From contig SICL01000006.1 of NCBI GenBank assembly GCA_009691445.1, positions 2,486 to 66,485 on the forward strand: DNA of 64,000 nucleotides, read 5' to 3'. Under the pieces are notes generated by a model. The model did not search any database. It was given only the letters and a program-made list of their open reading frames with translations, and had not been told where the DNA came from. The position numbers and the translations under genes are program-made. Position 1 is the first letter of the stretch; each line of letters starts with the position of its first letter. Source of the stretch: Candidatus Taenariivivens baikalensis (lineage in GTDB: Bacteria > Omnitrophota > Omnitrophia > Omnitrophales > Aquincolibacteriaceae). Shown here in pieces: positions 6,570 to 61,587 of the stretch.

Positions 6570-7080
6570 AAATTCCAGTCTCAAAAAACTCGTCAGCCTG
6601 CTTGTGGCTTGTTTCTTTGTTCCTGTTGTTTTTGCTTCGGAAGTTCCCGATCTAACTCGAACGGACGTACGGATAAGGATGAATCCTAAAACGGGAAAGC
6701 CCTTTGTCAGTATCGTGAACGGGGATGCTCCCGACAGCCGCAGGATTTTTTACGGGAACATGAAAAAATACTCGCGCCCTGATTACCGGATGCTGGACTA
6801 TCACATGAAATCCGGACAGATTCCGTATGACGGCCCTTCCAGCAGTGCTAAAAAAGTTTATGCCTTTGCCGCCACGATGGCAACGGCCGGAGTTTTGGCC
6901 GGAACCCTGATTCCTGTCACCGCAGCTGCCGGCGCCGCGTCTGCTGGGTCAGCGGCCGGTTACGGGGCTGCCGGAACCGGGCTGACTGCGGGTGTTGTTT
7001 CCACGGCCTGGCTTAAGTCGCGGACGGACCCGCATCAGGATGATTTCAAGCACGATTCTGAAGCCGTAGTTAAAAAGTAA
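6562..7080 (+). CDS. Hypothetical secreted protein with a Gly/Ala-rich C-terminal region. Start adjusted to the internal ATG at 6562.
   Basis: MNKNSSLKKLVSLLVACFFVPVVFASE signal peptide after RBS-like ggtgga. The upstream part of track ORF 6493 overlaps the previous gene. Confidence 0.4.
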   Translation: MNKNSSLKKLVSLLVACFFVPVVFASEVPDLTRTDVRIRMNPKTGKPFVSIVNGDAPDSRRIFYGNMKKYSRPDYRMLDYHMKSGQIPYDGPSSSAKKVYAFAATMATAGVLAGTLIPVTAAAGAASAGSAAGYGAAGTGLTAGVVSTAWLKSRTDPHQDDFKHDSEAVVKK

Positions 7081-7170: not shown

Positions 7171-8397
7171 ATGATTTGGGATATCACGATTATCGGAGCG
7201 GGAGCTGCGGGACTCATGACCGCCATTCATGCTACGGGAGGAAATCGCCGCGTATTGCTCCTGGACTCGAAAGAACGAATCGGTGCCAAGATCCTGATGT
7301 CGGGAGGAACGCGGTGCAATGTCACGAACCTTCAAGTTGACGTAAAGGATTTTCAAAGTGAGCATCCGCGCGTCGTTCGTAATATTTTGTCTGCCTATCC
7401 CAGTTCGAAGGCGGTCAATTTTTTTGAATCCATCGGAGTGATACTCGCCCTGGAAGAGGGAGGAAAATTTTTCCCTGAAACCCAAAGTGCAAAAACAGTT
7501 CTTGAAGGGCTCCTAAGTGAAGTAAAAAATCGCAATGTCGATTTGGTCACGGGCCGGCGTGTGGAATCGGTGGAGGTAGATCTTGCATCTTTCCATATTC
7601 GCGGCAAGGGATTTGAATATGAGTCCAAAACCGTTGTGATTTGTACGGGTGGACTTTCTTATCCGGGAACTGGAAGTGACGGGAAAGGGTATGAGATTGC
7701 CCGGCATTTCGGTCACTCGCTCATTGAGACAATGCCTGCATTGACCCCGCTTTCGACGAATGATCCCGATTGGAAAAGTCTTTCCGGTCTTTCGCTTTTT
7801 TGCCGTCTTGTTTTAAAAACAGGAGTTAAGGAAAGAGCTTCATACGAAGACTCGTTTCTTTTCACTCACTTCGGATTTAGCGGTCCTTCGGTTTTGGATA
7901 TCAGCCGCCATTGGCTTCACTGGAAAAAGGAGGAGCCGATTTTGACCGCTAACTTTCTTCCCAAGGAAACCGAAGAAACCCTGCGGGCCACACTTTTGGA
8001 AATGACCACCGAACATTTTGACTGGACGCTCAAGCGGTTTCTTTGCGAAAAACTTCCGGAAAGGCTTGTCGAGATCATTTTAAAAAAATCCTCTATCCCC
8101 AAAGATCAAAGATTGAAACAACTCAAAAAGGAAGCTCGGGAGGTCTTGATCCGGAACCTGTTTCGAATGCCTCTTTCGATCACGGGAGTTTTTGGGTATC
8201 AAAAAGCCGAGGTAACTGCGGGTGGGGTAACTCTGGACGATCTGGATCCTCGTACCTTAGAGTCCAAAAGGCAGCCAGGACTTTTTTTTGCCGGAGAAGT
8301 GGTGGATGTCGATGGCCGCATCGGTGGGTTTAACTTTCAATGGGCATGGGCAAGCGGGGTGGCGGCAGCACTGGGAGCCATTCAGAGATTAATTTGA
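7171..8397 (+). CDS. HI0933/YhiN-family FAD-dependent flavoprotein (aminoacetone-oxidase-family oxidoreductase).
   Basis: N-terminal dinucleotide-binding fingerprint DITIIGAGAAGLMTA and C-terminal GG...AGE motif (FFAGEVVDVDGRIGGFNFQWA). 408 aa. Confidence 0.8.
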   Translation: MIWDITIIGAGAAGLMTAIHATGGNRRVLLLDSKERIGAKILMSGGTRCNVTNLQVDVKDFQSEHPRVVRNILSAYPSSKAVNFFESIGVILALEEGGKFFPETQSAKTVLEGLLSEVKNRNVDLVTGRRVESVEVDLASFHIRGKGFEYESKTVVICTGGLSYPGTGSDGKGYEIARHFGHSLIETMPALTPLSTNDPDWKSLSGLSLFCRLVLKTGVKERASYEDSFLFTHFGFSGPSVLDISRHWLHWKKEEPILTANFLPKETEETLRATLLEMTTEHFDWTLKRFLCEKLPERLVEIILKKSSIPKDQRLKQLKKEAREVLIRNLFRMPLSITGVFGYQKAEVTAGGVTLDDLDPRTLESKRQPGLFFAGEVVDVDGRIGGFNFQWAWASGVAAALGAIQRLI

Positions 8398-10441: not shown

Positions 10442-11908
10442 ATGATCCTTCTGCGCCGTATTGTTTTATATCTATTCACCCTGATCTATCTCGTATTCTG
10501 CCCGCTCACCATTTTTTATGCGTTGGGATTTATGTATCAGCCCGGATCGGAACACGGCATTGTTAAAACGGGTCTTGTCTATGTTTCTACCGTCCCTTCT
10601 GGAGCCACCGTTTATTTGAACGACATGCGTTATGAGGGGACAACGCCTTCCGTAATTCGCAATCTAATCCCCGGCTCCTATCAGGTTCGGGTTGAGTTAA
10701 AAGGGCATCAGCTCTGGAATCAGGAAGTGCCGGTGGAAGCGGAACACGCCTCGGTATTGGAAAAAATGCTTCTTTTGCCTGAGAGCTTAAAAAAACATTC
10801 CCTGGGGGCGCAGTCCTTTGAACAAATGACAGTCATTCCTGGGACTCCCTTTCTTTTGCTTGCTCGCGGCAAAAAAATATCAGAGTGCTTTGTTTATGAT
10901 CTGAAAAAAAAACTGGAATATCCCCTGTCGGGTCCTTTGTTTGAATGGGAGGACGCCAAGGTTCTTCAAACGCACTTGGTTTCCCGCGCGAAAACGATCG
11001 TGGTGAAACTGGAGAGACAAAATGCCCGCCGATTTTACCAATTTGATTTGAGCCTGGAAAATACGCCTAAAGATCTAACCTCTCTGTTTCCCGAAGAACC
11101 GAAGAAGATCCTCTGGGATCCGTCTGCCGAAACTCATCTCCTCGTTTTTAAAGATAAGCATTTAAATTATCTGCGCTCCGATAAAAAAACAATTTATCCC
11201 AAAGTGGCTGGTAATGTGCAGGGATTTGGTGTGGAAAATAAAAATCTTTATCTGTTGCGAGACGATCATACGTTTGCAGTGATGACCCTGGATGGAAGAA
11301 ACGAAAAGGCCCTTTTGAAAGATGCTGTTCTGGGAGAATCCCTTTTTGAGGACAAGGGATTCTACGATATTGATGTGCTTTCTCCGGAGTTAATCTTATT
11401 TTTGGGTGAGAAAGGAGCATTGATTTCCAATCGATTGCCTTACCGTTTTGCTCACGCGGAGGTGAAGGGTTATGACTACGCTCCTCGACAAAAGAAACTC
11501 CTGGTCTGGACACGCTCAGAGATTGGGGTGATTGATTTTTCCAAAGCTGAGGAATCTGAAACGGATGTGTTCGAAAAAGGGCCGCGCCTGATCTGGATGT
11601 TTACCCGTGGGAAATCGATTCAAAAAGCAACCTGGATTTACGACGCGGCACACGTGATCTTTCAGGATCAGGACCATCTTGTTTTTCTCGACCTCGAGAC
11701 CTTTAACAAGGCCGAGACCCATGAACTTCTCCAAATGAAGGAAGACACGGCGTATCACTACACGGATCAGACCGGACTTCTTTATTTTCTGGACCGTGAA
11801 AGTGGAAAACTGACGGCTGCCGAACTTTTGCCCAAGAGGGAACTCATCTTGCTTCCTTTCCCCACGCGTCAGGAAAAAACCGTAAAACGAAGGCTGATGA
11901 TGTTATGA
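10442..11908 (+). CDS. Membrane-anchored PEGA-domain protein.
   Basis: N-terminal TM helix, then a PEGA-like segment (VPSGATVYLNDMRYEGTTPSVIRNLIPGSYQVRVELKGH). Confidence 0.45.
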   Translation: MILLRRIVLYLFTLIYLVFCPLTIFYALGFMYQPGSEHGIVKTGLVYVSTVPSGATVYLNDMRYEGTTPSVIRNLIPGSYQVRVELKGHQLWNQEVPVEAEHASVLEKMLLLPESLKKHSLGAQSFEQMTVIPGTPFLLLARGKKISECFVYDLKKKLEYPLSGPLFEWEDAKVLQTHLVSRAKTIVVKLERQNARRFYQFDLSLENTPKDLTSLFPEEPKKILWDPSAETHLLVFKDKHLNYLRSDKKTIYPKVAGNVQGFGVENKNLYLLRDDHTFAVMTLDGRNEKALLKDAVLGESLFEDKGFYDIDVLSPELILFLGEKGALISNRLPYRFAHAEVKGYDYAPRQKKLLVWTRSEIGVIDFSKAEESETDVFEKGPRLIWMFTRGKSIQKATWIYDAAHVIFQDQDHLVFLDLETFNKAETHELLQMKEDTAYHYTDQTGLLYFLDRESGKLTAAELLPKRELILLPFPTRQEKTVKRRLMML

Positions 11909-13578
11909 AATTCAATTTTAGCGGGAAAAAATTAACCGGATCAGAACGCGCTATCCAGCGTTTTTTTGAGATCTTGCCTGGGGCCACAAGCTGGTTTATT
12001 TTGATCGGGATGACACTGCTTAGTTTCTGGAACCCCATTTTGGCCGCGGTGTTGATTATTGCCTTTGATTTTTTCTGGATCCTCCGCCTTTTTTTCATGA
12101 CCCTCTTTTTGGTGATTTCCTATTTCCGACTTTCCCTGGAAAAGGAGACGGACTGGATGGCTCGACTTCACGGGCTTAATCATCTGACGGATGCTCTGAC
12201 GTTCCTGAATAAGGATTTTGGTACACGCAGTCTCCCTCAAAAAATTTCTTCCTGGATCCACCGGAAAGAAATGACGGAGCTTCAAAGAAGCGGCGCTTCC
12301 GTTCCTGATTTTAAAAAAATTATCCACTTGGTTCTGATTCCGATTGTGAGAGAGACGCCGGAAATTCTTCGCGACAGTATTTCCAGTTTTCTCAACGGCT
12401 ATTTTCCTTCCGAACAGATTCTCGTCGTGATCGCGCTTGAGGAACGCGCGACCGAGGACGTGAAAGCGGGTGCCCAGCAGATGGCCCGGGAATTCGAAGG
12501 CAAATTTTTTGACTTTAAAGTGATTTTGCATCCCAATCATATTCCGGGGGAGGCGCGTGTGAAGGGGGCTAATGTGACCTACGCGGCTCGGGAAATGACG
12601 CGATATTTTGAACAAAAGGAAATCTTGTTTGATCGCGTGATTGTTTCTTGCTTTGATGCGGATACGGTTGTGGACGCGCATTATTTCGGATGCTTGACCT
12701 ATCAATACATGGTTTGCCCCAAGCGCGAGCGCGCGAGCTTTCAGCCCATTCCGGTTTATCACAACAACATCTGGAAGGTTCCGGGATTTGTGCGCGTGCT
12801 GGAAACAGGGTCTTCCTTTTTCCAGCTTGTAGAATCCACGGACCCGGAAAAACTCGTGACCTTTTCCAGCCACAGTATGAGTTTCAGGGCGCTTGTGGAA
12901 GCGGATTATTGGCCGGTGGATATGATTTCGGATGACTCGGCGATTTTCTGGAAATGTTACATCCACTATGATGGCGATTACCGGGTTGTTCCTCTTTATG
13001 TCACGGTCTCGATGGATGTGGCTGACGCGGGGAATTGGTGGAAGACCATTGTGAATGTTTATCGGCAGAAACGTCGTTGGGCCTGGGGTGTGGAGAATTT
13101 TCCGATTGTGATGCGCGCCTTTCTTCAGGCGAAAAAGATCCCGTTTTCCGAAAAGATGGGCCACGGAGTCAAACTTTTTGAAATGCACGTGGCCTGGGCG
13201 ACTTGGGCGTTTCTGCTTTCTGTGATCGGCTGGCTTCCAGCCCTTTTTGCGGGCCGCGAATTTTCGCACTCCGTGCTTTATTACAGCACCCCCCGCATTA
13301 CCGCGATTATTTTTGGATTTTCCACCTGTGCGCTTGTCGTCACGATTATCATGAGCCTGTGGCTCCTTCCCAAGCGTGAAAAAAGAGATTCTGTATTCCG
13401 GCGACTTGGATTCGCTCTTCAGTGGGTGTTTGTTCCCGGTATTTTTACTTTTCTCAGCACTTTGCCGGCCCTCGAAGCCCAAACGCGTTTGATGCTCGGT
13501 GCCTATATGGAAAAATGGGGCACCGATACGATGCAGCGGCCTGCTGTATTTTCCAGTCCAGCGCCGGGAAAGCAGTAG
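11905..13578 (+). CDS. Integral-membrane family-2 glycosyltransferase, processive beta-glycan synthase-like.
   Basis: DxD (CFDADTV), an ISDDSAIF (TED-like) segment and a Q-x-x-R-W motif (QKRRWAWG) as in cellulose/chitin synthase-type GT2 enzymes. Several TM helices. Overlaps the PEGA gene stop. Confidence 0.6.
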   Translation: MKFNFSGKKLTGSERAIQRFFEILPGATSWFILIGMTLLSFWNPILAAVLIIAFDFFWILRLFFMTLFLVISYFRLSLEKETDWMARLHGLNHLTDALTFLNKDFGTRSLPQKISSWIHRKEMTELQRSGASVPDFKKIIHLVLIPIVRETPEILRDSISSFLNGYFPSEQILVVIALEERATEDVKAGAQQMAREFEGKFFDFKVILHPNHIPGEARVKGANVTYAAREMTRYFEQKEILFDRVIVSCFDADTVVDAHYFGCLTYQYMVCPKRERASFQPIPVYHNNIWKVPGFVRVLETGSSFFQLVESTDPEKLVTFSSHSMSFRALVEADYWPVDMISDDSAIFWKCYIHYDGDYRVVPLYVTVSMDVADAGNWWKTIVNVYRQKRRWAWGVENFPIVMRAFLQAKKIPFSEKMGHGVKLFEMHVAWATWAFLLSVIGWLPALFAGREFSHSVLYYSTPRITAIIFGFSTCALVVTIIMSLWLLPKREKRDSVFRRLGFALQWVFVPGIFTFLSTLPALEAQTRLMLGAYMEKWGTDTMQRPAVFSSPAPGKQ

Positions 13579-13745
13579 GCAGTCGGCAGTAAGCAGTAGC
13601 CAGAAAGCAGTCGGCAGTTAGCAGGAGGCAGTCTGCACTAAGAATATTTTTTGAGATTCGTCTTTTCGAATTAAGTTTTTAATCTTTGTTTTCTGCCTAC
13701 TGCCTCCCTGCCACCTGCCGACTGCTTTCTGCCTACTATTTCTCT
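13579..13745. repeat. Large imperfect hairpin of inverted GGCAGTN heptamer arrays around an AT-rich spacer, just downstream of the GT2 gene and upstream of the giant ORF.
   Basis: ggcagtcggcagtaagcagtagccagaaagcagtcggcagttagcaggaggcagt ... actgcctccctgccacctgccgactgctttctgcctact read directly. Confidence 0.6.
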
Positions 13746-13874: not shown

Positions 13875-16800
13875 GTGACTTCTACACGCTCCTATTTTTA
13901 TTCACGGAAATTTCCAAGAAAATTAATTGCATTTCTGACTGCACTTTTCTTCGTCCTTGAAAGTTTTTTTGTAACCCCTCAGACTTGGGCCGCCGCTGTT
14001 CCTTTCGAAGTTCAAGTACCTGCTTCCCTCGATTTAAAACTTTCTCCTGAACTCGGGACAATTGAATCTCTCAAAACCGGTTCTGGACCGCTCATCATTC
14101 ATATCCAGGAAGCACACGGCAATTATGAAACTCAAAAAAAAATCCAGGGTATTTTGCACTCCCTTCACTCTCAGTACGGAATCGATCGCATTTTGCTGGA
14201 AGGCACTGCCTTTAAACTCCACCCAGAACTCGCCCGGTTTTATCCTGAAAATCCCGCACTGAATGAGAAAGTCCTTGAGGCGCTTGCCAAACAGGGAATC
14301 GCAATTGGTCCCGAACTTTTTCTAGCCAAAACTCCGGAGGCCGAGGCGTACGGGATTGAGGATGTTAAACCCTACGTTGCCAATGGCGTTGCCTTTAAAG
14401 AAGTCCTGATTCAAAAAGAGAAAACCAAAAAGTTCCTCTCACTTCTCGATCAGCAGATCAGAGCCTTCAGTGGAACCTACCTGAACGATCCCCTCCGGCG
14501 TTTTCTAGATCGCACGGCCTCGTTTGAGAATCATCCGGACACCTTGAATGATCCGCTGAATATTTTGAAGCTCCAAGCAAAGGAAAATTTGGCGCTTGAC
14601 CTCGAAAGTCCGCTTGCTCAGTTTGACTGGCCGCAGCTGGTGCGTTTGAATGTGCTCGCGGAGATGGAAGGGAAGTTTGAAGGGGGAGCATTTGCGAAAG
14701 AGAAGGAAGCATTTCTTAGAGCAATCAAGGCTTATACGTGGAAGGAAGAAGGAAGAGGGAAGAAGGAAGAAAAAGAGAGAAAGACTTCTCTTCCTTCTTC
14801 CATCTTCTCTCTTCTCTCTTCTGAATTTTCCACTCCCGCCCCCCCCAATCTCGAAACCCAAATGGAATCCCTTGTTTCTCAGCTTCCGAGCGATTTTGAT
14901 TACAAAGCTTATCCCAACGTCAATCGATTCATTGGTCACAAGCTATTAGCCGCAGAGTTAAAAGGAGATGCGCTGCTCAAGGAAATCGAAATACTCACGG
15001 CTAAGATCACGGACAAGCTCGCCAAGACGAAGGAAGAGAAGGAAATCGTTGAGCTTTTGAAATCGTACAAATTGCTGAAGAAGTTATTTGCGCTGGAGTT
15101 AACGGCGGAAGAATATGAGCAAGTGGTAAGCCGTCGGCAGAAGGCAGTCGGCAGTAAAGAGCCGGAGAAAGGCAGTTCTGCCTACTGCATACTGCCTACT
15201 GCTTTCTTGTCCCGATTCGCCGCTCTCAACCATGAAAATCGCATCAAGGACTTGAATTTTCGAGTGGGTTCAAAAATTGACGCTTTGTACGAAAAGGCGC
15301 TGGAGTTTTACCGTCTCGCCAAAGAGAGGGACGGAATCATGATTAAAAATATCGAGAAAATCCTTCGGTCTGAAACCCGAAATCCTAAACTCGAAACTCG
15401 AAACAAATCAAAAATTCAAAATCAAAAATTCGAAACGACACAGAAAAGCAGTTCCGTTTTAGATTTGAATCACTCGAATTTTGAATTTATTTCGGATTTC
15501 GGATTTAGAGTTTCGAGTTTGCCGAAGGCGGTGGTGGTGATTACTGGCGGTTTCCACTCCAAACCCTTTGCAACCTACTTCAAAGATCACGGCTACAGCT
15601 ACGCGCTCATTACTCCCAAAATGATTTCTACGGAAGGTCGCGAGACTTATGTGGATTTTATTCTTAAGAATTTTTCTCCAGCCCAGACTTCAAATTTTAA
15701 AATTGCACCTAGGGTCATGTCAACACCCTCCGAACTCCTCAGCCTTGGTTTCGGATCAAAAAATATTCAGAGAATGCGATCCGAGGTGAGAGGAATTTCC
15801 AAAAAAGACTACGAGAAATTGGCACACGATGCTCGAGATCCACGTGCGCGCCGAGGCTGGGTCCAGCCAAAGACTTCTGTAACGGGCAGACGGTATCACC
15901 GCCGGGGAATCGGCCAAGCGGCTTTCCGAGACCGCTCTCAAGTTCGCTCGGAGCTCAGGACTCAAGGATCTGAACATTTGCTGGCAGATCGAATGACCAA
16001 AGCTTTGCTTCAAGCCGATCCGGATATATCAGGTCAGGCTGGTTTAGATGTTGCTCATATCAGGGGATCAGCGTCTGCAGGTTCGATTCTGAAGGCTTTA
16101 GAAACTTTGAACACTGAAGAGTTTAAGGCCCTTCGATTGGACCTTAAAGAAAAGTTCGAGCAACAGCTTGCAACGTTTGTGGCTATCAAACCTCATGCGC
16201 TTAAGGAAGAGGCTGCCCTTATTGAGGGATTTGTCAAAGCAGGATTTACGGTTCACCTTGGACCCCAGGTTCAATTCGACGAAATCAAAGCCCGTAATTT
16301 TTACCGGGCGCACGCCTTTGAACCTTTTTTTATTTCGCAGCTGCTTCCCGAGATCACAAAAGGCCCTGCCCGCATTTTGATTCTCGAAAGGGCGTTAGGA
16401 AATGCCGTGGCGGAGGCCCGGAAGGTTGTGGATCAAATACGAAGTGACCGGGGAGTGACGAATAAAGATCCGCAAAATTATGTCCACGCCTCTGATGACG
16501 GCGAAGAGGGATCTGCCTGGCGTGAATCTGGAATCGCGGTTTCAACCTCGGAAGAAATTATGGAAAATATTTCTCAGGCTATTGAGGCGTCAGCTCATCC
16601 TTATGATCAATTAAAATCTGCCCAAAGTCTTGTTGCGATAGGTCAGGTTGACCCTCAAGGAAACGGGCGAAAACTTTTAGAAGGTTTGAAAGTTCCATTC
16701 GGTTTTGATTGGGAGCGCGATTCTGTAGCGGCTAAAAAAATCTTAGAACGTGCTCTCGTCATTCCACAAAAACGATCTGAATTAAGGAAACCAGAAGCAA

Positions 16801-28800: not shown

Positions 28801-31800
28801 CAATTTTTCATGGGAAAGATTTCCAGGAGGGAGTGTTTGTTGAGGGACGCATGAGAGAGGGAAGGCGCGGCGCATTAAAAGAAGCCGGCTTCAACGGAGT
28901 CTTCCACCGGGAAGGCGAATTTTATGTGGGAATTGAAATGCAAATTGATTCAAAGACGGCGCTCATAAAACCAGAAAAGATTCGTGCCATTATTCAAAAG
29001 AAGGATGGCTGGTTTGTTGCCTGTGAAATTCCCTTGATGCTTTATTCTGACGCCGCCAATTCCAAATTTTTTTCTGATTGGGCGGATATTATGGCGAAGG
29101 CGCTTCGCAAACTCGTGCGTGAACATCCACTGGAAAATCAGCCTTATTTTGAGGGCAAGTTACAAGAAATCTTTCCTCCGGCAGTGATGCTGCCCTTTCC
29201 GGAGAGTATGTCTGCCCGCCCGCAGACTTTTCCGGAACAAGTTGTGAGCGACGCGTCTACGATCGAAATTGCTCCCGGATTTTTTGCATTCATCCACGCC
29301 GAACCTCAGGGAGGAGAATACGATCCTTGGACTAGAAGGAGAATTCGGCCAACCCATTATGAATATTCTGTCCGATTCAAGGATCATTTGTCTCGCGCGG
29401 TAGAAAAAAAAGGTTACAACATAAGAGACCGCAGGGAAACGGTTTTGGGTTATCAAGTCACAATAAAGCCGGGAGATAATAATTCTTCTGCCAAAGTCTC
29501 AGCAGTCAAAACTGTGGGACCGGTCGAGGTTCAGCTTTTGGTGGATGGCTCAGAGAAACAGCCAAAGAGGGAAATTCCACCCATAAAGATTAGTTCCCTT
29601 CAAGTGAATCGGTCCAATCCCCAGGATGCTTCCATTTCTTTGGAAGGGAAAAGCATCGCAATAGGCGAGACACAACAAATTGGGCGTTTTGACATTTATT
29701 TTAAAGGCTATGCCCAATCAACTATCGAAGGCGTGCCGCCCGCCGTGATTTTGATCATCCTTCCGCGTTCGGAAGTGCGAAAAGGGTTAGCCGGTCAGCG
29801 AGTGAACCTGCCAACGGATTTAAATCCCGGGCACGCGATTACCCGGTCACTCGTTAAACCGGATCGGCGGTCGGAAGTGCGATCCACTCCGCTGGTTTCA
29901 GATCAAAGCAGGGATGTCTCCAAGGCTTTTATTCCTCAAGCCTTTAAACCCTTTTATTTTTATGATCGGGAAAGAAGACCCTCCGTGGAGTCTCAAGTCC
30001 CTGCTTCAGTTTTTCTTTTGGATCCCAGGGTTGATGCCTCGTTAAATAAAAACGAAGCCCACGGTGTTTTTCTCAAGCTAAAATCAAAGGGAGACCGAGT
30101 TTTGATTTATGATTATCACGTCACGCCAAATCCCTATGGCCAAACGGCTGAAGAAATTTCAAATCGTAGTGCTTATATCAACCATCTGGAAGTGAACCTG
30201 GATGAACATGGTCACTTGGAATCATTTATGATCCACAAGGGAGACCTGAGCCGCCACAGGCGTCATCCCTGGATTTTTGGAGATGTGGAAGCGTGGTTAA
30301 GTGCCCAGAAAGGAAAGCCATTCAATATTTCGAATCCTGAATTTCCGAAACAGATTCAACCCGGTGCAAGGAGATTGCCCGCAGTTCCGCAAGCGGGCAG
30401 GGTCAGGACGATGGACGCTAAAAATCCTAACTGGGTTACTCCTGAAGATAGTGGACTTGAGCTTCTCGTCAGCCGATTGGGAGATCCCGCGCAGCCTGTT
30501 GTTTTCAATCGTCTGCAGCAAATGCAGGAAAAGATTCTTGAAATGGGACCCGTGGCCTGGTCGTTTTTACTGGATCTTTATCCCTCGTTTACTCGCCAGC
30601 CCAAAATCCAGCAGGAAATCAAAATGATTCTTCTTCAGGCCGGACCCGCGGTTATTCCGGTGCTGCAAGGCTATATTGATCACCGCAGAGAACCCCAGGC
30701 AGTTTTGGCAACGGAACTCTTGCATCAGATCAATCCATTTATTGTCGACGATCACGCCGAATCGCCCATTGCACATATTTCTGAAATGAATTTGCCTCTT
30801 CCCTCGAATCTGGAACCCGCGAATTTGATTGTACTCGGAGGAATGGGAGCTGTTGCCCAAGTGTTTTATGAAACGCACATGAAAGCGTTGGCCCAGCGTT
30901 ACGGAGTGACATTGACGGCGGTGGACCTGATGCCGCAGGATGCTGCGCTCGCAAGAATCAAGGCTGAAAACCTTCCTTATCAAACTTACATCCAGGTACC
31001 GAATCGTCCATTGAACGGGCCGGAAACAGATTTTATGAAACAACTTCTAGCTCAGAATCCCAAAGGGGTTTTGATCCTGACCCGTCCCAACTCTCATCTG
31101 GATTTTACAAGATGGGCACTGAATAACGGGATCAAAGCTTACGTGGAAAAACCTTTTTCTCTTCCCGAGGACACTGTTACGATGGCAAAGCTTCACGAAC
31201 GGTTTGAACGGGCTATTTTTGCCATCGATTTTTTCTTTGATAATGAATCGGCCTTGAAAGGTTTTGAAATGTTGCAATCCAATTTCTTCGGAGATCTTGT
31301 TTCTATCAAAGGCAGCATGATCGAAAGCAATCTCATTGAAAACGGCAGAGGCTGGCTTGTGGACCGAAAAATCAATGGCGGAGGAATGGGGCCGGACATG
31401 CTGGTCCATTTGGTCGCGTTAGCGGAACTTCTTTTGACCAAATTCAAGCCATCTTCCGATCCTTCCCGGCATTTAAGTCTTGAGCAGTTTAAACTGGATT
31501 ATCAAAAGAGCAAACAGTGGCGTTACCGCGGAGCACCGAAAGGCCAGGAGACTTACCTTCATGCCATCGGAAATCTTGGACATGTTCCCGTGGATTTAGA
31601 TGCCGGCAAAGGCCTTCATGAGTGTGCGTATTTTATGATCCTTCAAGGAACCAAAGGAACGCTTGAGATTAATCTTGGAAATCACAAGAAAAATCAAAAA
31701 CCTTTCTTGGAACTTCGCTCGCGCAGCGGAGAAATTGTCTATCACGAAGATTTTGGAGCGGATATCGGTTACGCGGGTGCGGTCCGGAAAATTTTTGAAC

Positions 31801-34800
31801 ATCTTCAAGACCAAAAAAGGCCAGATGGAAAGCCGGCGGTCTCAGATCGGGAGCTTGATTTCCGGGTGCGTGCGGTCAAAACCTCCGTGGATTTGGTAGA
31901 TAAAGTAAACGGCGCGCTCGGCGGCGAATTTTTTTATCATAATGCCGGGCAGAATCCCGCGGAACTTTCGGTGCCTGAAAGAGTGGGGGAACGGGCAAAC
32001 CGTCTGATGCCTCTGCAATCGAATCTGATCAATCCCGTGACCCGCGAAAAAATGCAGATTCGCCGCCAACCCGGAGGAGACGCCTACCGTCATTATTATG
32101 ATTTGTACCGATCTTCGCAAGGCGATCTGCGATTCGAGGGAGTGACGATACAGCTGCTTGCCGACTCGTTACTGGTTGATAACTTAAAAATTCCTGCGAT
32201 TCAAGGATATCGGGAAGACGGTTATGCCATTCCCATTTTAAAGTGGGCGCTCGAGCTTGCCCAAAAAATTTATCCGGATTCAGAGTATCCTTTACTGATT
32301 TCTCAAGACGACGTGACGATGCTGCCGGTGCTTGACGGTATTTTTGACCCGGCGTCGATTGAGCTCCGAAATAATATGGATGGAACCTGGGGGCATCTCA
32401 AAGATCCAGCCTTCAATTTGTATCATATTTTCGGAGGTTCTTACAGCCGTGAGCCCAAAGACGAGGGCGCGATTATTCTTGCCGACCCTCAGTCTTATTT
32501 CCCTTTGGGAACGGCCCAAATCCGTAAGCAGGGTGAAAATTATTTGCTTGTTTCTTCAAGTCTTCCCGCCGCCTCCATAAAATTTCAAGGGCCTTTGATC
32601 CGGGCTTCTTATCGAGGAAAGCCGCTGCGCATTATTTTCCCTCATCAAACGATGGCGATTCGCGGTCTCCCTAAAAAGTGGGATGCCGACGCGGCCGCGG
32701 TCACACGCCGTTTGGAATTGCCGGCAACACTTGCTGAGATTAATATACTTATTGACGGAGGGAACATCGTCGATGCCATTCGATCATTTACGCGCAGTAG
32801 AGCCTCTTTAGATTCTCAATCTGTGAACATGATTGCCGAGCGTCTCAGGCAATCTTATTTGGATCCGCTTGTCGTTGTAGGGAAACTGGGAGGCACTTCG
32901 ATGGCTTTTGAGACTGCGTCTCCCTACGGACTTCTTGGATACCGCAATTCATCCCCGACAATCACGAAACCGGACAAAGCGGATACAGCCGTAGAAGTGG
33001 TTGAACGGATCGTGAAAACGATTTTGGATGTGATGAAGCCTTATGTTGAAGAAGATCCCTCAGCAATCAATCGATTTATGGCGATTCGTTTTAGCGCACC
33101 CGGTTATTTTGATTCGGAAGGAAACCTGATCGAGGATGAAGAAAATATCCCAAAAATCAAGGCCGGATTTAATTTCAGCAAGGAAGTTTTTCAAGCCTTA
33201 ACGAGCGCGCTTCAAAGGAAGGGATGGACCCGCCACGAGTCTCTTCCTCCGATCGAAGTCACTGTCGAACATGACGGGACAGCCGGAGCACGTGGGGAAA
33301 TCTCCGAGTTTGGGACTTTTCCAGGTGACGGCGATCTTTTTTTTCTGATCGCAGGCACAGGCATCGGAAGCAGGCGCTTTAAGGATGGAAAACCTTTTTT
33401 TGGGGATAAGCGCGTTCAGGGGCTGGCGAATGAAGGTCCTCATCACCTCCAGTTTAATGAAAGCAAGGAGCATCCGGATTTTGCTTACCGCGCTCTTCAA
33501 ACCCAAGGCTTTCCTATTAAACGGTTCAAACCGGGGCATGCCCGGCAAATCCGGGTTCCAAACCTTGAGGAAATTTTGCAGTACGGGCCTCATTTGATTG
33601 ATCTTGAGGATTTAACTTCCGGACCCAATATTGAAAAATATGCCGCGGAAGTTTTGAGAAAATTTAATCAGCATAGCGAGCATAACGCTGAAAAAGCTGA
33701 GCAACGAAAACTCGCTTTCGATATTTTAAACGAAGTCGGCTTCAATTTTGAAAGTGTTTCCACAAAACTGCTTGGAGAAAAAGCCAGAGCCGGAAATACA
33801 CTTGCCCAGAGAATCATTCGGCAAAGGGCGCGTTTGCTTGGGATTGGTTTAGCGGTTATGTTGGTTGAACAATATAAAGTCTTTGGAGCGGAAGAATTCG
33901 GAATTCCGAAGCATGTGATTCTTGGGTCCGGAGTTTCCCAGCTTGGTTCTGTTTTTCTGGATGCGGTCCGGGAAGGTTTTAAAGAAAGGCTGGATAAATA
34001 TTATACTGCCCGTCAGGAATATACCTTTGACCCCCATAGGCAGATTGTTCTTTCCAAAGTGATGGACGACACCGGCCGTGAATTTTACGGATTTCTTCCC
34101 ACCCCAACCGAAGCAGCGGCCTACAAACAAAAACTCGGATCTCTCTCACGTTCTGAAGCGCGGATGGATCGACGCGATTTTATACAATCCTTTATCGCTT
34201 TGACTGAAAGTGCTGTCTCTTTGGGCGCGGCCTTGGGTATTAGTTATTTGATCATCCTTCCGCGTTCGGAAATGCGAAAAAGGTTAGCCGGTCAGCGAGT
34301 GAACCTGCCAACGGATTTAAATCCCGGGCACGCGATTACCCGCTCACCGGCTAACCCTGACAGACGCTCGGAAGTGCGGGCGGTCAATACGGAGGGAGCG
34401 ATTCCGGTCAGGTCGTTTGATCTTTCTGCAAACCCCTCCAGAACAACCGAGGCAGGACTTTATCTGATCCGGCGTTTAGGATTACTCCAGACTTCAGTGG
34501 TGCCGCTTTTCCAAGCTATTCTAAAGAAAGAGGATCCCGATCCAGCCGTGGAACTGCTTGTGACAAGCCGGGAAGGTCTTTTCTTACAACCTCCCTCTGA
34601 TGAATTTATGACGGTGAGAAGGTTGAGTGGGCGCGATTCGCTTTACCGTCTGGATCTGAAAGATAAAACCATCACGCCTTTGACCTTTCCCGGCGTGTTA
34701 AATCCTTTCTCTGACGGAAACGGAAAACCCTTTGCACCGCTTACGCCTTTTCCTGCGGAACAAGGGGCTGTGCATTTTGCCCTTGTGGATAGAGATCTCA

Positions 34801-37800
34801 AACTCTGGATTTTGAATCCTTATACCGCGGCAGTCGTCAATCACGATTTAAAACTTCTTGCCGAACAACGGCACAAAGTTGTTTTGGATCCTACAAATCT
34901 GGATTCCATAAGTATCCGCCAGGCTTCAAGTGAAAATCTGATGGTGGTGATTCGCCCGACAGTCAAGTTGTGGGACACTGCCCCAAAATGGCCGATTCCG
35001 CTTTATTTTTCCGCAAGGGATGGAAGTGAATTACCGAGAGATTCTGGATATAGCCCTGACGGTGTTGACAGGATTTATTTATGGAGACCTTTGTACGACC
35101 AAGCGCGTCACGATCTTCGATCCCGTTTTGATTCCGGGAAAAAGGATATTTCCGTGACCGTCCAGGTTTCTGCGCTCACGAGTTCTGCCTTAGCAAATCA
35201 TCTTTCTGTGGAATGGCGTGCCCCAAACGGCGTGTGGGTGGAGGGATTTCTTCCGACTGCGTCCATTCCCGGAGCCTCAAAGGCTCATGAAAATCTTCTT
35301 TATCAGAATCTGAAGGTTTATCCAGGTAAAATTCATAGCGACCATTTTGTTTTTTTTACCGAAGGGCCTAAATCCGAAATTGCGAGTGAATTGGAAGCGC
35401 TATCGTCAGGTCAAAGGACGGCACCCGCCATTCCACCGCGCGTTTCTCCTTTTTATGAAAGTGAACCGGATTTTAGCGTCCACTCTTTTTCCAGAGAAGG
35501 TTATGAATCGGCAGCCGCTTCTCAAACCAACGAAGGGGTTTTAGCGGAATTGACAGATGCGCTCAATCAATTTTCGAACCGGGTGATTCTTGTCGAAGTT
35601 ATCGGAGCTTCGTTTAAAGGAAATGGTTTGAATGTGATTTATCAGGGTGTGCAGGGATTTATTCATAAAAATCATTTAAGGGGATCAGTAAGTGACTACC
35701 CGCGTGGAAATCATATTTCTGTTTGGGTCATGACGGTTGACCGGACTCGGAATCCGTCCCGGCCGTTCGTGCAGTTTTGTGAAGTCCACCCCCGTTCTGA
35801 AGTGCGGAATTCAGGGGTATCACCGCAGTCCGATAGTGATGGAGTTTACCGGGAATTACAAGCAATGGATGCTTTGGGTCTGGATGACCGGCCATACCTG
35901 AGTGTGCAAGTCCTTGGAGTGAGTCGAAGGGGTACGGGTGTAAATGTTGAATATAAGGGAGTACCAGGATTTATTTTATACAACCTTCTTAAGAAACCTG
36001 TGCGTGAGTATCATCCTGGAGATTTCATTGATGTAATTTTTCACAGTATGAAACAGTTGCGGAATTCTTCGCGTCCATTTGTAGAATTTTGGGAACGCCA
36101 GCAGGAAGGAGGATATCGTTCCGAAGTACGCTCCGAAGTGCGCAGCCTGTCAGCCCGTGAACTGGTGCACCCGTTAATCGGTACACCGGAAACCGGCGCA
36201 CAGGCTAACCGGAATACGCGTTCAGAAGCGCGGATGGATCGACGCGATTTTATACAATCCTTTTTCGCTTTGGCTGAAAGTGCGGTCTCTTTGGGCGCGG
36301 TCTTGGGTATTAGTTATTTGATGATCCTTCCGCGTTCGGAAGTGCGAAAAGGGTTTTCGGGACAGCGAGTGAACCTGCCAACGGATTTAAATCCAGGGCA
36401 CGCGATTACCCGGTCACCCGTTAAACCGGATCGCCGATCGGAAGTGCGTTCTGCTTCACCAAAGCCTCGCATCCTTGTCATTGAAGTGAATGCTGCCTTG
36501 TATCGAGTGGCGGAGAAAAGCTTCGGCGAAGTGTTTGAGGCTTTAAAGTCAGAAATTGAAAAAAAGCTGCCACTTGGCGTGAATGTTGGGAATTTCGTTT
36601 CGATGACAGACGGTAATGTCGTTGTGATGGGTAGCAATGATTTGCTTGTGCGTCAAAGAAATTTTTCTAATCCATTTGGGGGCGCCAAACTGACAGTTCG
36701 CTACGCAGATCTTCGCTCGGAAGTCAGGAGCTTAGGAATCCATTCGGCAACGCAGATTGTTCCTCATCTTGGAAAGTTTGATGGAGCTTTGACGGCAAAC
36801 GTTAACCACCACTCTCATCGGCACTCTGATGATCATATCGCTCTGAAAGACGGCCGGTTGATCACCGTTCTGGTCGATGATGAGCCGTATAAAAGATCCA
36901 TTGATTTGACTTTGACGGACCCTGACGACTTAAGCAAACTCTACGTTAAGGTTCGCAAGGTTGAACAGGCGGGTACGTGGGATGTGTTATTAGCTGACTT
37001 ACGGGAAAATGTCACTTCGATGATTAACAAGTCTGATTCGCTGGGTGAGGTTGCGAAGAGCCTGACGGCACTTAATCTCGCACGTTATCAATCCAAGCAG
37101 AAGTCTATTCTCTATGTGGGGACGTTTTATCAAATAGATGAAACCCTCCGGCCATTTGCCTTAATGATTAAGGATGGTTTGACAGAAAATCAACTGAGGT
37201 TCAATTTTAATTTTTCGAATCGAATGATTGCCGATGAAAATGTTTCGAATCCCTTAAAGATTCCATCGATGTGGAGTACGGAGAGTGTTTTCAAGATCAA
37301 GTTGAAGGTCAGGGAAGAAAAGATTTCGTCGGGTAAAATGCCGGTACTGGCTATTATGCGATTAAAAGCACCCTCTTCTCATTTGTCAGATATCCGGGCA
37401 CATTTACAGCAGCTGGGAATTCAGTATTTGATGCGGGCCGAAGTTTCTTATGCCGACGGCACTAAAATAGATCTGGAGCCTCAGGTAAGGGTGGCCAGCC
37501 TGGAAGCCTTGCGGAATTCTCCTTTTGATTCAAGTGTCCGTAAAGTGCTGGGGCAGTTGAAAGGGTTGCGAAGTCTAGCGCTTGCGGCAAGAAGCGGCAG
37601 AACTGACGGATCACTTTTGGATGGATTGGAACGTTCTGAAATTCGGACGGACTTGCCCGTTCAAGAATTTGAGGATCAGGGGCAGTTGATCAGCCGGATT
37701 TTCCGGCAGGGGATTGTACCGCTGGTGAAGATGGGCGAGGCCGCCCGTGCGTGGGTGGTAGCTGTTTACGGAAAAACGAAGACGACAGCGAGGGAATCGT

Positions 37801-45483: not shown

Positions 45484-46521
45484 ATGTCTAAAAAGGATCA
45501 GAAATCTAAGAGTAAATATATTGTTGGGGTGGATCTCGGGGGAACCAAGATCCTGATCGGTTTGATGAATTCCAGTTTTGGATTGATGGGTTCTCACAAA
45601 ACAGCGGTTGAGCCTCAGCGGGGAGAAAAGGTTTTTTTAAAAAGTATCCAGAACGGCATCGAAACTGTTCTTGATGAAGCCCGCGTCTCGATCAAAGAAA
45701 TTAGCTGTATCGGTGTTGGATGCCCTGGGATGATTCAATTTCCTCAAGGAACAATCAAGCTCTCGCCCAATATTGCTTTCCTCAAAAATTATCCTCTTCA
45801 GCGTCGTTTGTCGAAAATGTTTAAGGTTCCCGTTCTGGTCGAAAATGATGTCAATGCGGGACTCTATGGGGAACAGCAGTTTGGATCGGCGCGTGGACAC
45901 CGCCACGTGATTGGGATTTTCCTAGGAACTGGAGTCGGGGGTGCCATGATTTTAGACGGACGGTTATACCGCGGTGCTTCAGGAGCCGCCGGAGAAATTG
46001 GCCACACCTTTTTGGCGCCGCCGTCGATGCTTTCCAGTTTCGAAAAAAGTACAACCTTGGAAGGCCTGGTCGGACGTTTAGCGATTTCCTCAGAAGCAGC
46101 CCTACTTGTGATGAAGCAAAAGGCAAACCACCTTTATGAGGACGTTCAATACGATGTGAGGAGGATTAAAAGTAAGATGCTCCTTAATTCGATTCAGTCC
46201 GGCGATTCATCCGTGAAGGAACTCGTTTTGCAAAAGGGGAGAATTTTGGGACTCGCGATGGCCAATGCGGTGAATCTTCTGAATCCGGAAATGATTGTCC
46301 TTGGCGGCGGAGTGATTGAGGCGATGGGGCATTTAATCATTCCTGTCGCTCGCGAAGTGATGCATCGTTATGCGATGGCACCCATTGTGAAAAACGTCAA
46401 GGTGGCACAGGCCAAACTTGGGGATTACTCAATTGTGAAAGGCGCCGCCAAGCTTGCTTGGGATGTGCATTTTAATTCATGGGAAGAACAAGGAAGAAAA
46501 CGGAAGAAAGGGGAAGAATAA
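45484..46521 (+). CDS. ROK-family sugar kinase / regulator (glucokinase-like).
   Basis: VGVDLGGTKI, ENDVNAGLYGE and LGTGVGGAMI...GEIGH ROK signatures. The C-terminal tail (EEQGRKRKKGEE) is encoded by a one-armed GGAAGAA heptamer array (46480-46520). Confidence 0.8.
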   Translation: MSKKDQKSKSKYIVGVDLGGTKILIGLMNSSFGLMGSHKTAVEPQRGEKVFLKSIQNGIETVLDEARVSIKEISCIGVGCPGMIQFPQGTIKLSPNIAFLKNYPLQRRLSKMFKVPVLVENDVNAGLYGEQQFGSARGHRHVIGIFLGTGVGGAMILDGRLYRGASGAAGEIGHTFLAPPSMLSSFEKSTTLEGLVGRLAISSEAALLVMKQKANHLYEDVQYDVRRIKSKMLLNSIQSGDSSVKELVLQKGRILGLAMANAVNLLNPEMIVLGGGVIEAMGHLIIPVAREVMHRYAMAPIVKNVKVAQAKLGDYSIVKGAAKLAWDVHFNSWEEQGRKRKKGEE

Positions 46522-59679: not shown

Positions 59680-61383
59680 ATGTCATTTCCTCTCCTCGGC
59701 TGCGGCATCGGTCTTCGCGCTCCTCACTATGCTGAAATTCTAGGGCCGGCCCGAAAATTGGACTGGTTCGAAGCCATCTCTGAAAATTATATGGATACCG
59801 GAGGGCGTCCCCTCCAGATCCTCGAAAAAATCCGCAAGAACTATCCGGTTGGACTTCACGGGGTTGCACTTTCCGTGGGTTCAACGGATCCGATCCATCT
59901 TCCTTATCTTGAAAAATTAAAAACCTTGATCGACCGCATTGATCCTGCGATTGTCTCCGATCACATTTGCTGGTCGGGCGTGGCCGGTGAACATTTACAC
60001 GACCTCTTGCCCCTTCCTTTCACGGAAGAATCCATCCGCCTGATCGTTGAAAAAACGGACCAGATTCAGAATTTTCTTGGACGTCAGATCCTGCTTGAAA
60101 ATGTTTCGACTTATGTCACGTTCAAACATTCCGAAATGCAGGAATGGGATTTTGTGCGGGAGATCGCAAGGCGGTCCGGCTGTGGACTTCTTCTGGATAT
60201 CAACAATGTTTATGTCAATGCTCGTAATCACGGCTTTGATGCCCAGGAATATCTCCGGAATATTCCCGGAGAGTTTGTGGGACAGATCCATCTTGCTGGG
60301 CACACGGACAAGGGTAAATTTCTTTTTGATACACACAGCTCTCCGGTGATCGATGAGGTTTGGGAACTTTACCGCCAGGCGCTGGAATTGTGGGGAAGCA
60401 AGACGACTCTGATTGAGTGGGATGAGGATATCCCTGAGCTTGAGCGCCTGATTGACGAGTGTGATAAAGCGAGAAAGATTTATCAAAGTGTTCGTGTTGA
60501 ACGTCATTGCGAGGAGTCCCTCAGGGACGACGCGGGAATCTCTGTCAGAAAAGGCGGGATTGCTTCGCTTGCGGCTCGCAATGACATCAAGGTAGAAACA
60601 TCTTTAAAAAACATCCAGCTCTGGATGCAATCTCAAATCAGGGACGGTTCTTCCCAACTTCTGGAAGCGCAACAAGTTACAGAAGAACCGTCCCTGAATC
60701 CCCAGGCCGGGGACCCGGGAGTAGAACGTCTTGACGTTTACCGCGAAGGTTATTTGGCCCGCACCGAAGAATCCCTCAAAGAAGTTTACGAAGCGGTTCG
60801 CCACGTGCTGGGCGACGGCGTGTTTCATGATCTTGCGCATCAGTACGCGCAAAGTTTTTCTTCTCCGGATTTTAATCTTAATCTGAAAGGCCGCAGTCTT
60901 CCGGATTTTTTAAAGCAAACCTCTTGGACTGAAAAGCTTCCATTTCTTCCGGATCTGGCCTGTCTCGAATGGAAAATTGCGGAAGCATTTCATGGTTTTG
61001 ACAAACCTGCTTTTGATCCTTCTTTCCTTTTTCAGTTAAATTCGGAAGATTGGAAAAATCTCCGGATTCTTTTTCAGCCGTCCGTATCGCTTCTGGAATC
61101 TTCCTGGCCCATCCTGGATCTCTGGCAGAGTCGAAAAACTCCTGTGGAGGAAATTAGAATGGATCTTGTGAACCGTCCTCAAAAAGTGTTAGTGGCCCGC
61201 CGCCCCAGCAAAGAAGTTTTTTGCCGTCTTCTTACTGAGCGGGAATTCCGGGTTTTGATTCTTCTGAAGCAGGGTAAATCCCTGGGTGAAATGTTTGAAT
61301 TTTTTGATGAAGAGGAAGCCGATCTTCCTCTGACGGATTGGTTTTCTGCCTGGACGCGGGAAGGCTTGATCGCTTCTTCTTAA
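59680..61383 (+). CDS. Fused DUF692 (MNIO/MbnB-like multinuclear iron oxidase, BufB-like) and DUF2063 (BufC/MbnC-like partner) protein.
   Basis: N-terminal half (LGCGIGLRAPHY...SDHICWSG...HLAGH...IEWDEDIP) matches the DUF692 TIM-barrel family. C-terminal half (LDVYREGYLART...DFNLNLKGRSLPDFL) matches DUF2063. 567 aa. Confidence 0.7.
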   Translation: MSFPLLGCGIGLRAPHYAEILGPARKLDWFEAISENYMDTGGRPLQILEKIRKNYPVGLHGVALSVGSTDPIHLPYLEKLKTLIDRIDPAIVSDHICWSGVAGEHLHDLLPLPFTEESIRLIVEKTDQIQNFLGRQILLENVSTYVTFKHSEMQEWDFVREIARRSGCGLLLDINNVYVNARNHGFDAQEYLRNIPGEFVGQIHLAGHTDKGKFLFDTHSSPVIDEVWELYRQALELWGSKTTLIEWDEDIPELERLIDECDKARKIYQSVRVERHCEESLRDDAGISVRKGGIASLAARNDIKVETSLKNIQLWMQSQIRDGSSQLLEAQQVTEEPSLNPQAGDPGVERLDVYREGYLARTEESLKEVYEAVRHVLGDGVFHDLAHQYAQSFSSPDFNLNLKGRSLPDFLKQTSWTEKLPFLPDLACLEWKIAEAFHGFDKPAFDPSFLFQLNSEDWKNLRILFQPSVSLLESSWPILDLWQSRKTPVEEIRMDLVNRPQKVLVARRPSKEVFCRLLTEREFRVLILLKQGKSLGEMFEFFDEEEADLPLTDWFSAWTREGLIASS

Positions 61384-61587
61384 GTCTCTTCCACTACTTA
61401 CTTCCTAAATCGTTTTACCTGCTCCTGATTTCTGCCTAGGTTTAGCTATCTAATGCTATAAATTGATAGTCAAAACAATACAAAGTTCTATGTTAGTTGA
61501 AATAGTATAAAGCTGAGGGTAACTTTTAATAGGACAGCTGTGCCTAGCCAATAAATAAGTACGCACGTAACCTGAGTTGGAGGAAGT

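Follow-up and report, generated by a model that had tools for sequence, protein, structure and literature searches.

A conserved N-terminal domain with hydrolase-type residues and a recurrent R-[S/A]-E-x-R junction motif in giant Omnitrophota proteins

Introduction

Giant multi-enzyme open reading frames (ORFs) of Omnitrophota are a recognised puzzle. Such ORFs and the possible post-translational cleavage of their products have already been published, and the encoded proteins have been called 'Archaeovorins' and 'multi-enzyme metabolic clusters' (10.1101/2023.11.21.568195; 10.64898/2026.06.07.730766; see also PMC10066038), the latter term being defined in the 2026 preprint (10.64898/2026.06.07.730766). 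West-Roberts et al. proposed C39 and S8 peptidase domains and called the cleavage points unknown; according to the same preprint, the missing information on cleavage points blocked the analysis of the products (10.1101/2023.11.21.568195). Here we analyze a gene of this kind from Candidatus Taenariivivens baikalensis, which occupies positions 13875–38423 (+) of a 64,000-nucleotide stretch of contig SICL01000006.1, hereafter called the window. This ORF has a GTG start, encodes 8,182 amino acids (aa) and comprises an N-terminal domain, which we term the head, and about 26 modules that are delimited by a short junction motif. The section 13875–15700 corresponds to residues 1–608 and thus to an N-terminal hydrophobic segment plus the complete head domain. 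Term searches of both giant-gene preprints returned no mention of TraB or Tiki and no description of the head domain, and a literature search for RSEVR or RSELR as a junction motif yielded nothing relevant.

MARTX toxins resemble the Omnitrophota protein in being encoded by a giant bacterial ORF with several unrelated effector or enzyme domains and short sites between the domains. Their domains are released by a protease domain in the same chain, which cuts at these sites, whereas cleavage of the Omnitrophota protein is a prediction. In MARTX toxins, this protease is an internal cysteine protease domain with a preference for cleavage after Leu, and flanking repeat regions are present, while the candidate protease of the Omnitrophota protein is an N-terminal TIKI-like domain, the junction has the sequence R[SA]ExR and the modules look like metabolic enzymes. 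In viral leader-protease polyproteins of the L/P1-type found in picornaviruses and potyviruses, an N-terminal protease is followed by many mature products that are separated by a short consensus site, and the first site is located directly after the leader. The Omnitrophota gene, in contrast, resides on a cellular chromosome, its leader has a different fold and its processing is predicted only.

The head itself is best compared to the TIKI superfamily, taken here as Tiki1/2, TraB/PrgY/GumN (PF01963), ChaN (PF04187), the erythromycin esterases EreA/B/C and Bcr135/136, HopBA1, and the RRSP and PMT C2 domains. As judged from its core model, the head probably shares with these proteins an alpha/beta core in which the strands are parallel. 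A His follows the first core strand, and a Glu is found after the next strand at a distance of 28 residues; a helix with Arg-[Asp/Asn] precedes a strand that ends in GxxH, and additional domains are variably appended or inserted. Some of them, such as Tiki and RRSP, are sequence-specific endopeptidases. Unlike the superfamily, the head has no significant match to a family model, carries Q-x-A-H as first motif, has its core interrupted by a helical insertion (about 280 residues) and contains an extra invariant Glu (E162) in a G-I-E-[D/N] strand. It also sits near the N-terminus in the 150 matches listed, mostly in kiloresidue proteins composed of multiple modules.

Results and discussion

The head defines a very large protein family, in the tails of which R-[S/A]-E-x-R links modules that are unrelated to each other. 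When 1.84 billion representatives of 50%-identity clusters were searched exhaustively with a profile (E <= 1e-3), a head was identified in at least 9,115 clusters, 5,468 of them at E <= 1e-30. The head was near the N-terminus in all of the 150 best matches listed and started around residue 45 in nearly all of them, and the proteins were mostly 1–8 thousand amino acids (kaa) long. A word-indexed protein search retrieved only seven relatives, and both of those with a named source came from Omnitrophica metagenome-assembled genomes (MAGs). Scanning one genome per species yielded 30 loci, for which the titled records were Omnitrophota MAGs, one of them labelled Planctomycetales. A single genome can hold multiple copies of the family, since two or more of the loci came from the same genome in several cases. 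The window contains a second head-bearing polyprotein gene that starts at 61576 (+) and runs off the window end (61576–63999). Its head (61741–63165) matches the head profile with E = 1e-133 and is 24% identical in sequence to that of the giant ORF. Two junctions lie downstream of it, RSEVR at 63715 and RSEAR at 63808. Tandem head-bearing polyprotein genes were seen at loci L026 (9806–13561 and 14178–20528) and L010 (3–9368 and 9854–21409). Two compact, divergent heads, at L029 200–5101 (+) and L025 12654–14816 (-), have a shorter helical insertion and retain all catalytic-type motifs, and their tails of 1,634 aa and 721 aa, respectively, are free of the junction motif. Such heads could serve as natural controls or to bridge between divergent sequences. 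Stop-codon reassignment or an assembly artefact was rejected as the origin of the long ORF, because its neighbours are ordinary ORFs with strong Pfam matches. The recurrence of the architecture in thousands of clusters likewise led to this rejection.

The RSEVR 'punctuation' described in the original prediction is real: the giant ORF contains 26 copies of RSE[VLMAI]R, whereas 2,000 residue shuffles contained 0.065 on average and never more than 2. The first junction, RSEVR at residue 635 (15777–15791, +), is found 36 residues past the end of the head and just outside of 13875–15700. Junctions 2–9 start at nucleotides 15945, 16773, 17280, 17853, 19578, 20859, 22269 and 23025, junctions 10–18 at 24669, 24777, 25629, 26832, 27843, 29766, 29868, 34149 and 34263, and junctions 19–26 at 34365, 35793, 36117, 36219, 36333, 36435, 36714 and 37632 (all +). 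Within the window, the giant gene and the second head-bearing gene are the only real ORFs with RSE[VLMAI]R. RSELR, RSEVR, RSEAR, RSEMR and RAEVR are the top five 5-mers in the tails of 151 family members, and the remaining frequent 5-mers are dominated by R[SA]ExR words. The density of R[SA]ExR in family tails is 2.15 per 1,000 aa, compared to an expectation of 0.055, and at least three such motifs are present in 94 of the 117 family proteins of at least 1,500 aa (80%).

Head and motif are statistically coupled. Across the 30 genomic loci, the motif density was 2.87 per 1,000 aa in the tails of head-containing ORFs versus 0.25 in other open frames, and every motif-rich ORF with a visible N-terminus had its own head. 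The other motif-rich frames proved to be frameshifted continuations, a truncated upstream polyprotein and a tandem gene with its own head. The median distance from the head to the first motif was 78 aa (interquartile range 57–121), compared to a general spacing of 220 aa. No conserved neighbouring gene, be it for a protease, for secretion or for another function, was common to the loci examined, and a Pfam scan detected no protease domain in the tail of the giant ORF. This family-wide coupling is consistent with a self-processing secreted polyprotein, as had been suggested from the sequence of this locus.

Pfam domains that reach the cut-off in the tail are NDK, DHDPS, a glucosamine-6-P isomerase-like (NagB-like) domain and the N- and C-terminal domains of AlaDH, and GFO/IDH/MocA domains match below the cut-off (E = 1.7e-4 to 7e-3). 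Each of the Pfam matches in the tail falls inside a single motif-delimited segment. The tail modules match Pfam with E = 1e-5 to 1e-16, whereas stand-alone genes of the window match strongly (ROK, E = 1.6e-55, 45484–46521), indicating that the tail modules are highly divergent paralogues and not housekeeping copies. A 641-aa module (residues 4662–5302) recurs with 42% identity at residues 622–1234 of homologue P0044, with a motif at both ends in both proteins, and a DHDPS-like module in homologue P0116 begins exactly after a motif. A homologue search with the module that opens with a signal peptide (residues 1907–2333) gave no matches. Tandem motifs enclose spacers of 4–60 aa and repeated mini-modules of 29 and 33 aa; the repeated mini-cassettes are located at 29766–29882, 34149–34379 and 36219–36449 (residues 5298–5336, 6759–6835 and 7449–7525), with a degenerate copy near residues 4623–4661. 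Both mini-module peptides are enclosed by junction motifs, the 33-aa peptide being hydrophobic and similar to a twin-arginine translocation (TAT) signal (MDRRDFIQSF…ILP), and the 29-aa peptide (KGLAGQRVNLPTDLNPGHAITRSPVKPDR) being absent from 152 other family proteins.

Four of the 26 downstream segments in the giant ORF start with Met, two of which are the TAT-like MDRRDF... sequences. Family-wide, signal-peptide-like or lipobox-like sequences were 4.1 times more frequent after the motif than at random tail positions (p = 1.2e-5). It is evident from these observations that the N-termini of former or actual proteins lie at the junctions, while cleavage itself is a separate, predicted step. Because several downstream modules begin with Met or a signal-peptide-like sequence right after the motif, R-[S/A]-E-x-R may be a processing site that is probably cut after the last Arg, and we consider the chances for and against this reading to be balanced. 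Alternatively, R[SA]ExR might stay uncleaved as an inter-module linker or docking motif in an intact multi-enzyme scaffold, the head of which would form the membrane-proximal end. This possibility is in line with cleavage being a prediction and with the linker-like flanks of the motif, which are enriched in S, P, T and A. Giant ORFs have moreover been discussed as single products, and the longest Omnitrophota proteins were described as membrane proteins with a signal peptide plus transmembrane segments (10.64898/2026.06.07.730766). However, a strictly conserved, charged pentapeptide would be unusual for a passive linker, and the short spacers, the repeated mini-peptides between motifs and the enrichment of Met, signal- or lipobox-like sequences directly after the motif also speak against an uncleaved linker, which we regard as rather unlikely.

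The codon usage of the junctions raises the question whether they are additionally constrained at another level. Counting codons in the junctions of the window (15777–37646) and of the loci L001–L030, we found that the first Arg of R[SA]ExR is encoded by CGY in 87% of cases versus 47% in the background and by AGR in 4% versus 21%. The Ser is encoded by AGY in 9.5% of cases compared to 33% in the background, and the last Arg uses all six codons. Possible explanations are a shared ancestry of the junctions or a constraint at the nucleotide or translation level. A function at the nucleic-acid level, in addition to or instead of the protein level, could be that of a microhomology site for cassette shuffling or of an RNA-processing signal, which would agree with the occurrence of the bias across diverse genomes and with the shuffling of modules between proteins with preserved junctions. 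Such a function is nevertheless improbable, because third positions and the codon for x vary freely, the last Arg is not restricted in its codons, and switching of Ser from TCN to AGY is slow anyway under purifying selection. A conserved RNA hairpin in the junction was rejected from the sequence alone: it would be disrupted wherever position x has a codon for L, M or I, and the alternation of L, V, A and M at this position destroys any such structure.

The N-terminus of the giant protein (residues 1–45, 13875–14010, +; LIAFLTALFFVLESFFV...WAAA) is basic and then strongly hydrophobic between residues 17 and 35, with a Kyte-Doolittle peak of 2.02 at residue 17, and ends with ...WAAA. A similar hydrophobic segment is present in aligned homologues with an intact N-terminus. 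From its sequence, this region is predicted to be a signal peptide or signal-anchor. It is followed by the alpha/beta head domain (residues 51–599, 14025–15671, +), and in AlphaFold2 (AF2) models the core of this domain is split by the helical insertion of about 280 residues. The motifs on which the original prediction was based are present at residues 73–84, 105–110 and 552–563 of the 8,182-aa ORF and include residues that are near-invariant in 155 family heads; YGIED and ERDGIM, described below, were not among the motifs quoted there. HIQEAHGN (residues 76–83, 14100–14123, +) contains the first catalytic-type His, H81, with a conservation of 0.97 among these heads. E109 (0.98) is part of ILLEGT (residues 105–110, 14187–14204, +), and the second invariant Glu, E162 (0.99), is located after the third parallel strand in YGIED (residues 159–163, 14349–14363, +). 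R485 (0.97) and D486 belong to ERDGIM (residues 484–489, 15324–15341, +) in the helix that precedes the last motif, VVVITGGFHSKP (residues 552–563, 15528–15563, +), which includes G558-G559-F560-H561 (0.97). Near-invariant polar residues thus are H81, E109, E162, R485, D/E486 and H561, and Q78, Y167, P581 and Y592 are likewise strongly conserved. A pattern of two GxxH motifs had been proposed for the head, and this holds for the second one, which is G-G-F-H in 97% of the heads. The first one is Q-[T/E/D/S]-A-H, in which the His is conserved and the Gly is missing, and therefore it is not literally a GxxH motif.

Three hairpin-encoded inserts that had been noted in the head-coding sequence are genuine as well, and in the alignment their positions coincide with gaps in the homologues. 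Insert 1 (14745–14814, +) is in frame, has purine/pyrimidine-rich arms and a fold z of -3.8, and its position is occupied by a gap or variable sequence in homologues. The in-frame insert 2 (about 15130–15205, +; z = -2.95) consists of GGCAGT-type repeats of the same kind as those in the intergenic hairpin upstream of the giant gene (13601–13731). Insert 3 (15373–15520, +; z = -4.0) is an in-frame hairpin of about 150 nucleotides that encodes RNPKLETRNKS...FEFISDFGFRV; it separates the RD helix from the GGFH strand and is absent from all aligned homologues. The hairpin inserts resemble mobile palindromic elements whose insertion into loops of the protein is tolerated. Comparable inserts were observed in homologue P0007 and in the window paralogue (…RGPWSVALG…, …HEPRTTNHE…), and the second head, in the gene at 61576, has its own GC-rich in-frame insert (…TVDSPQKEHEGLNRGPWTMDRG…).

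The AF2 model of the full head had a predicted local distance difference test (pLDDT) score of 76.5 and was dominated by the helical insertion, which in Foldseek searches with the full-length model drew meaningless matches to coiled-coil and axoneme proteins. We therefore modelled the core of the window protein's head after removal of the insertions, using an alignment of this core to full-length homologues. This core-only model reached a pLDDT of 92.4 and a predicted TM-score of 0.88 and consists of six strands alternating with helices. Among the PDB matches returned by Foldseek, TIKI-superfamily structures held 5 of the first 11 places and 9 of the first 50, with E-values of 0.026–0.3, TM-scores of 0.33–0.42 and probabilities of 0.41–0.85. 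Among them were HopBA1 (5t09, E = 0.026, probability 0.72), Bcr135 (3b55 and 2rad, 0.85 and 0.80), RRSP (6a7h and 5w6l, 0.80 and 0.47) and EreC (6xcs and 6xcq, 0.66 and 0.41), all of which are listed as TIKI superfamily (PMC6254334). The His and Glu residues expected for an active site of this type are present and near-invariant, and in the core model H81, E109, E162 and H561 are each positioned 1–3 residues past the end of a different strand. H81 (core position 30) follows two residues after a strand formed by core positions 22–28, and the strand preceding E162 comprises core positions 106–109. The spacing of 28 residues between H81 and E109 is identical to that between H85 and E113 of Bcr135 and between H3902 and E3930 of RRSP (PMC6254334). 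Together, H81, E109, E162, R485 and H561 fit the 2His/2Glu pattern.

At the sequence level, no match to PF01963, PF04187, PF05139 or any other family was obtained at E <= 0.01 in Pfam/NCBIfam single-sequence scans of the head, the paralogue, 7 homologues, 10 insert-deleted cores and 2 compact paralogues. Deletion of the inserts, as suggested for the profile search, did not bring out a match to the Pfam and NCBIfam models. The best trace was a weak match of residues 518–559 of homologue P0007, containing RD..M and TGGFH, to positions 164–204 of 213 in the ChaN model PF04187 (E = 0.066). A profile search of PDB sequences with the head gave a chance match to MukF only. We additionally used hhalign to compare the head core (102 sequences) with a diverse TraB/GumN profile composed of E. 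coli YbaP and plasmid homologues from Rhizobium, Aeromonas, Aureibacter, Lysinibacillus, Sphingomonas and Proteus. With P = 0.003 and a probability of 10.5%, only the RD..M/GGFH region was aligned, such that AKERD..M...KAVVITGGFH of the head was placed on HQRN..W...RYVVAVGALH of TraB/GumN. In this alignment, R485-D486 pairs with the R-N of TraB/GumN and VVVITGGFHSKP with VVAVGALH of YbaP. The C-terminal half of the core alone gave P = 0.0014, compared to P = 0.099 for the reversed-sequence control.

We conclude that the core is probably a very divergent member of the TIKI/EreA/ChaN/TraB-GumN hydrolase superfamily, an assignment that is the best available reading and does not reach database significance. 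The assignment to Tiki/TraB/GumN in the original prediction is partly supported, by the suggestive Foldseek matches (9 of the top 50) and the weakly positive C-terminal hhalign results (P = 0.0014–0.003), while no Pfam or NCBIfam model recognizes the head. Several points weigh against this assignment and thereby against a protease function of the head. No sequence or structure match of the head was database-significant, the best Foldseek E-value was 0.026 and none was below 1e-3, and the TM-scores do not exceed 0.42. A cyclodipeptide synthase equals the TIKI-superfamily structures in Foldseek score, and the structural match was obtained with a construct from which the insertions had been deleted. 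The N-terminal half of the core gave no alignment to TraB/GumN (P = 0.31), a narrow E. coli YbaP profile did not match the head in hhalign, and the first head motif lacks the Gly of GxxH. Clustering of the His and Glu residues is suggested by their strand positions in the model only. Instead of sharing ancestry with TIKI, TraB or EreA, the head may represent a new alpha/beta family that acquired its His/Glu/Arg/His motifs by convergence, in agreement with the missing Pfam/NCBIfam matches, the missing profile-profile signal in the N-terminal half and the Rossmann-like and RecA-like folds that score in the same Foldseek range (E >= 0.026, TM <= 0.42). However, a single superfamily of very small size provides 9 of the top 50 PDB matches, the order of the motifs and the His-Glu spacing of 28 agree with the TIKI superfamily, and two independent methods align the C-terminal motifs in register. 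We consider an independent origin somewhat unlikely.

The designation of the head as a 'metalloprotease', in contrast, is not supported as such. Members of the superfamily differ in their metal dependence, and because RRSP is metal-independent and Ere enzymes are active without metal, which they do not need for catalysis, this label is unwarranted (PMC6254334).

The most economical hypothesis is that 13875–15700 encodes the leader module of a bacterial polyprotein and that the head is the processing protease, which makes the head the leading but unproven candidate for this function; we put this forward tentatively, at somewhat less than an even chance. According to this hypothesis, the basic and then hydrophobic N-terminus would direct export of the head or hold it at the envelope, and the core of the head would use a His-Glu pair to activate water. 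R-[S/A]-E-x-R would be the processing site, with cleavage probably occurring after the last Arg. The head may first free itself at the motif about 25–125 residues downstream and subsequently act on the remaining junctions, in cis or in trans, to liberate the other modules. Provided that the junction motif is cleaved, we see it as equally probable that the head is its cognate endopeptidase or that it is not.

Further observations that are difficult to reconcile with a processing function add to those concerning the fold. Junction cleavage is itself a prediction from sequence, an exported head would be separated from modules that stay in the cytoplasm, and the codon bias in the junction motif hints at a constraint beyond amino acids. 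Among the 117 long proteins with a head, 12 contain a single motif or none and keep all catalytic-type residues, and therefore the head is not strictly dependent on the motif. Some of these low-motif proteins use RP/RN/HA-ExR variants, and others contain nothing recognisable. The head could thus be a TIKI-like hydrolase or binding domain with another job, such as envelope anchoring or action on a prey, host or cell-surface substrate, while an unlinked housekeeping or host protease cuts R[SA]ExR. The preservation of catalytic-type residues in approximately 10% of long proteins without tail motif, the motif-free tails of the compact paralogues (L029 200–5101 and L025 12654–14816) and the N-terminal export signal, which may place the head away from cytoplasmic modules, are in favour of this explanation. 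In addition, the superfamily includes non-proteases, for example the esterase EreA and the haem-binding ChaN (PMC6254334). The tight co-occurrence of head and motif, the placement of the motif shortly after the head and the failure to find another conserved linked gene argue against a different job of the head, which we judge to be somewhat unlikely.

Two further features of the window concern genes in the vicinity of the polyprotein genes. Immediately upstream of the second polyprotein gene, at 59680–61383 (+), lies a gene of the type that modifies ribosomally synthesized and post-translationally modified peptides, with MbnB/TglH/ChrH (DUF692) and DUF2063 domains; this proximity may be coincidental. 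A 513-aa open frame at 11941–13482 (-) is antisense to a GT2 glycosyltransferase gene (11905–13578) and, judging by a low-complexity composition rich in Arg, Lys and His, is likely to be spurious.

Conclusions

Our analysis provides two new handles on the giant Omnitrophota proteins that were not present in the papers we found. One is a five-residue junction motif that partitions the proteins into modules and can be used now to split them for annotation and structure prediction. The other is an N-terminal domain with hydrolase-type invariant residues, which is the sole component that is genetically linked to the motif. A further-reaching and quite doubtful extension of these findings is that much of the Omnitrophota proteome is produced in the form of leader-protease polyproteins, in which a TIKI-like head cuts at R-[S/A]-E-x-R. 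If this were true, dozens of enzymes, exported proteins and short peptides would be released from single ORFs of 1–8 kaa or more, and a cellular organism would use a virus-like strategy of gene expression in which modules are exchanged as junction-bounded cassettes. If processing is confirmed, such polyproteins would form a bacterial system of wide distribution, and the heads would constitute a new and very large branch within the TIKI superfamily for which the substrate motif is defined.

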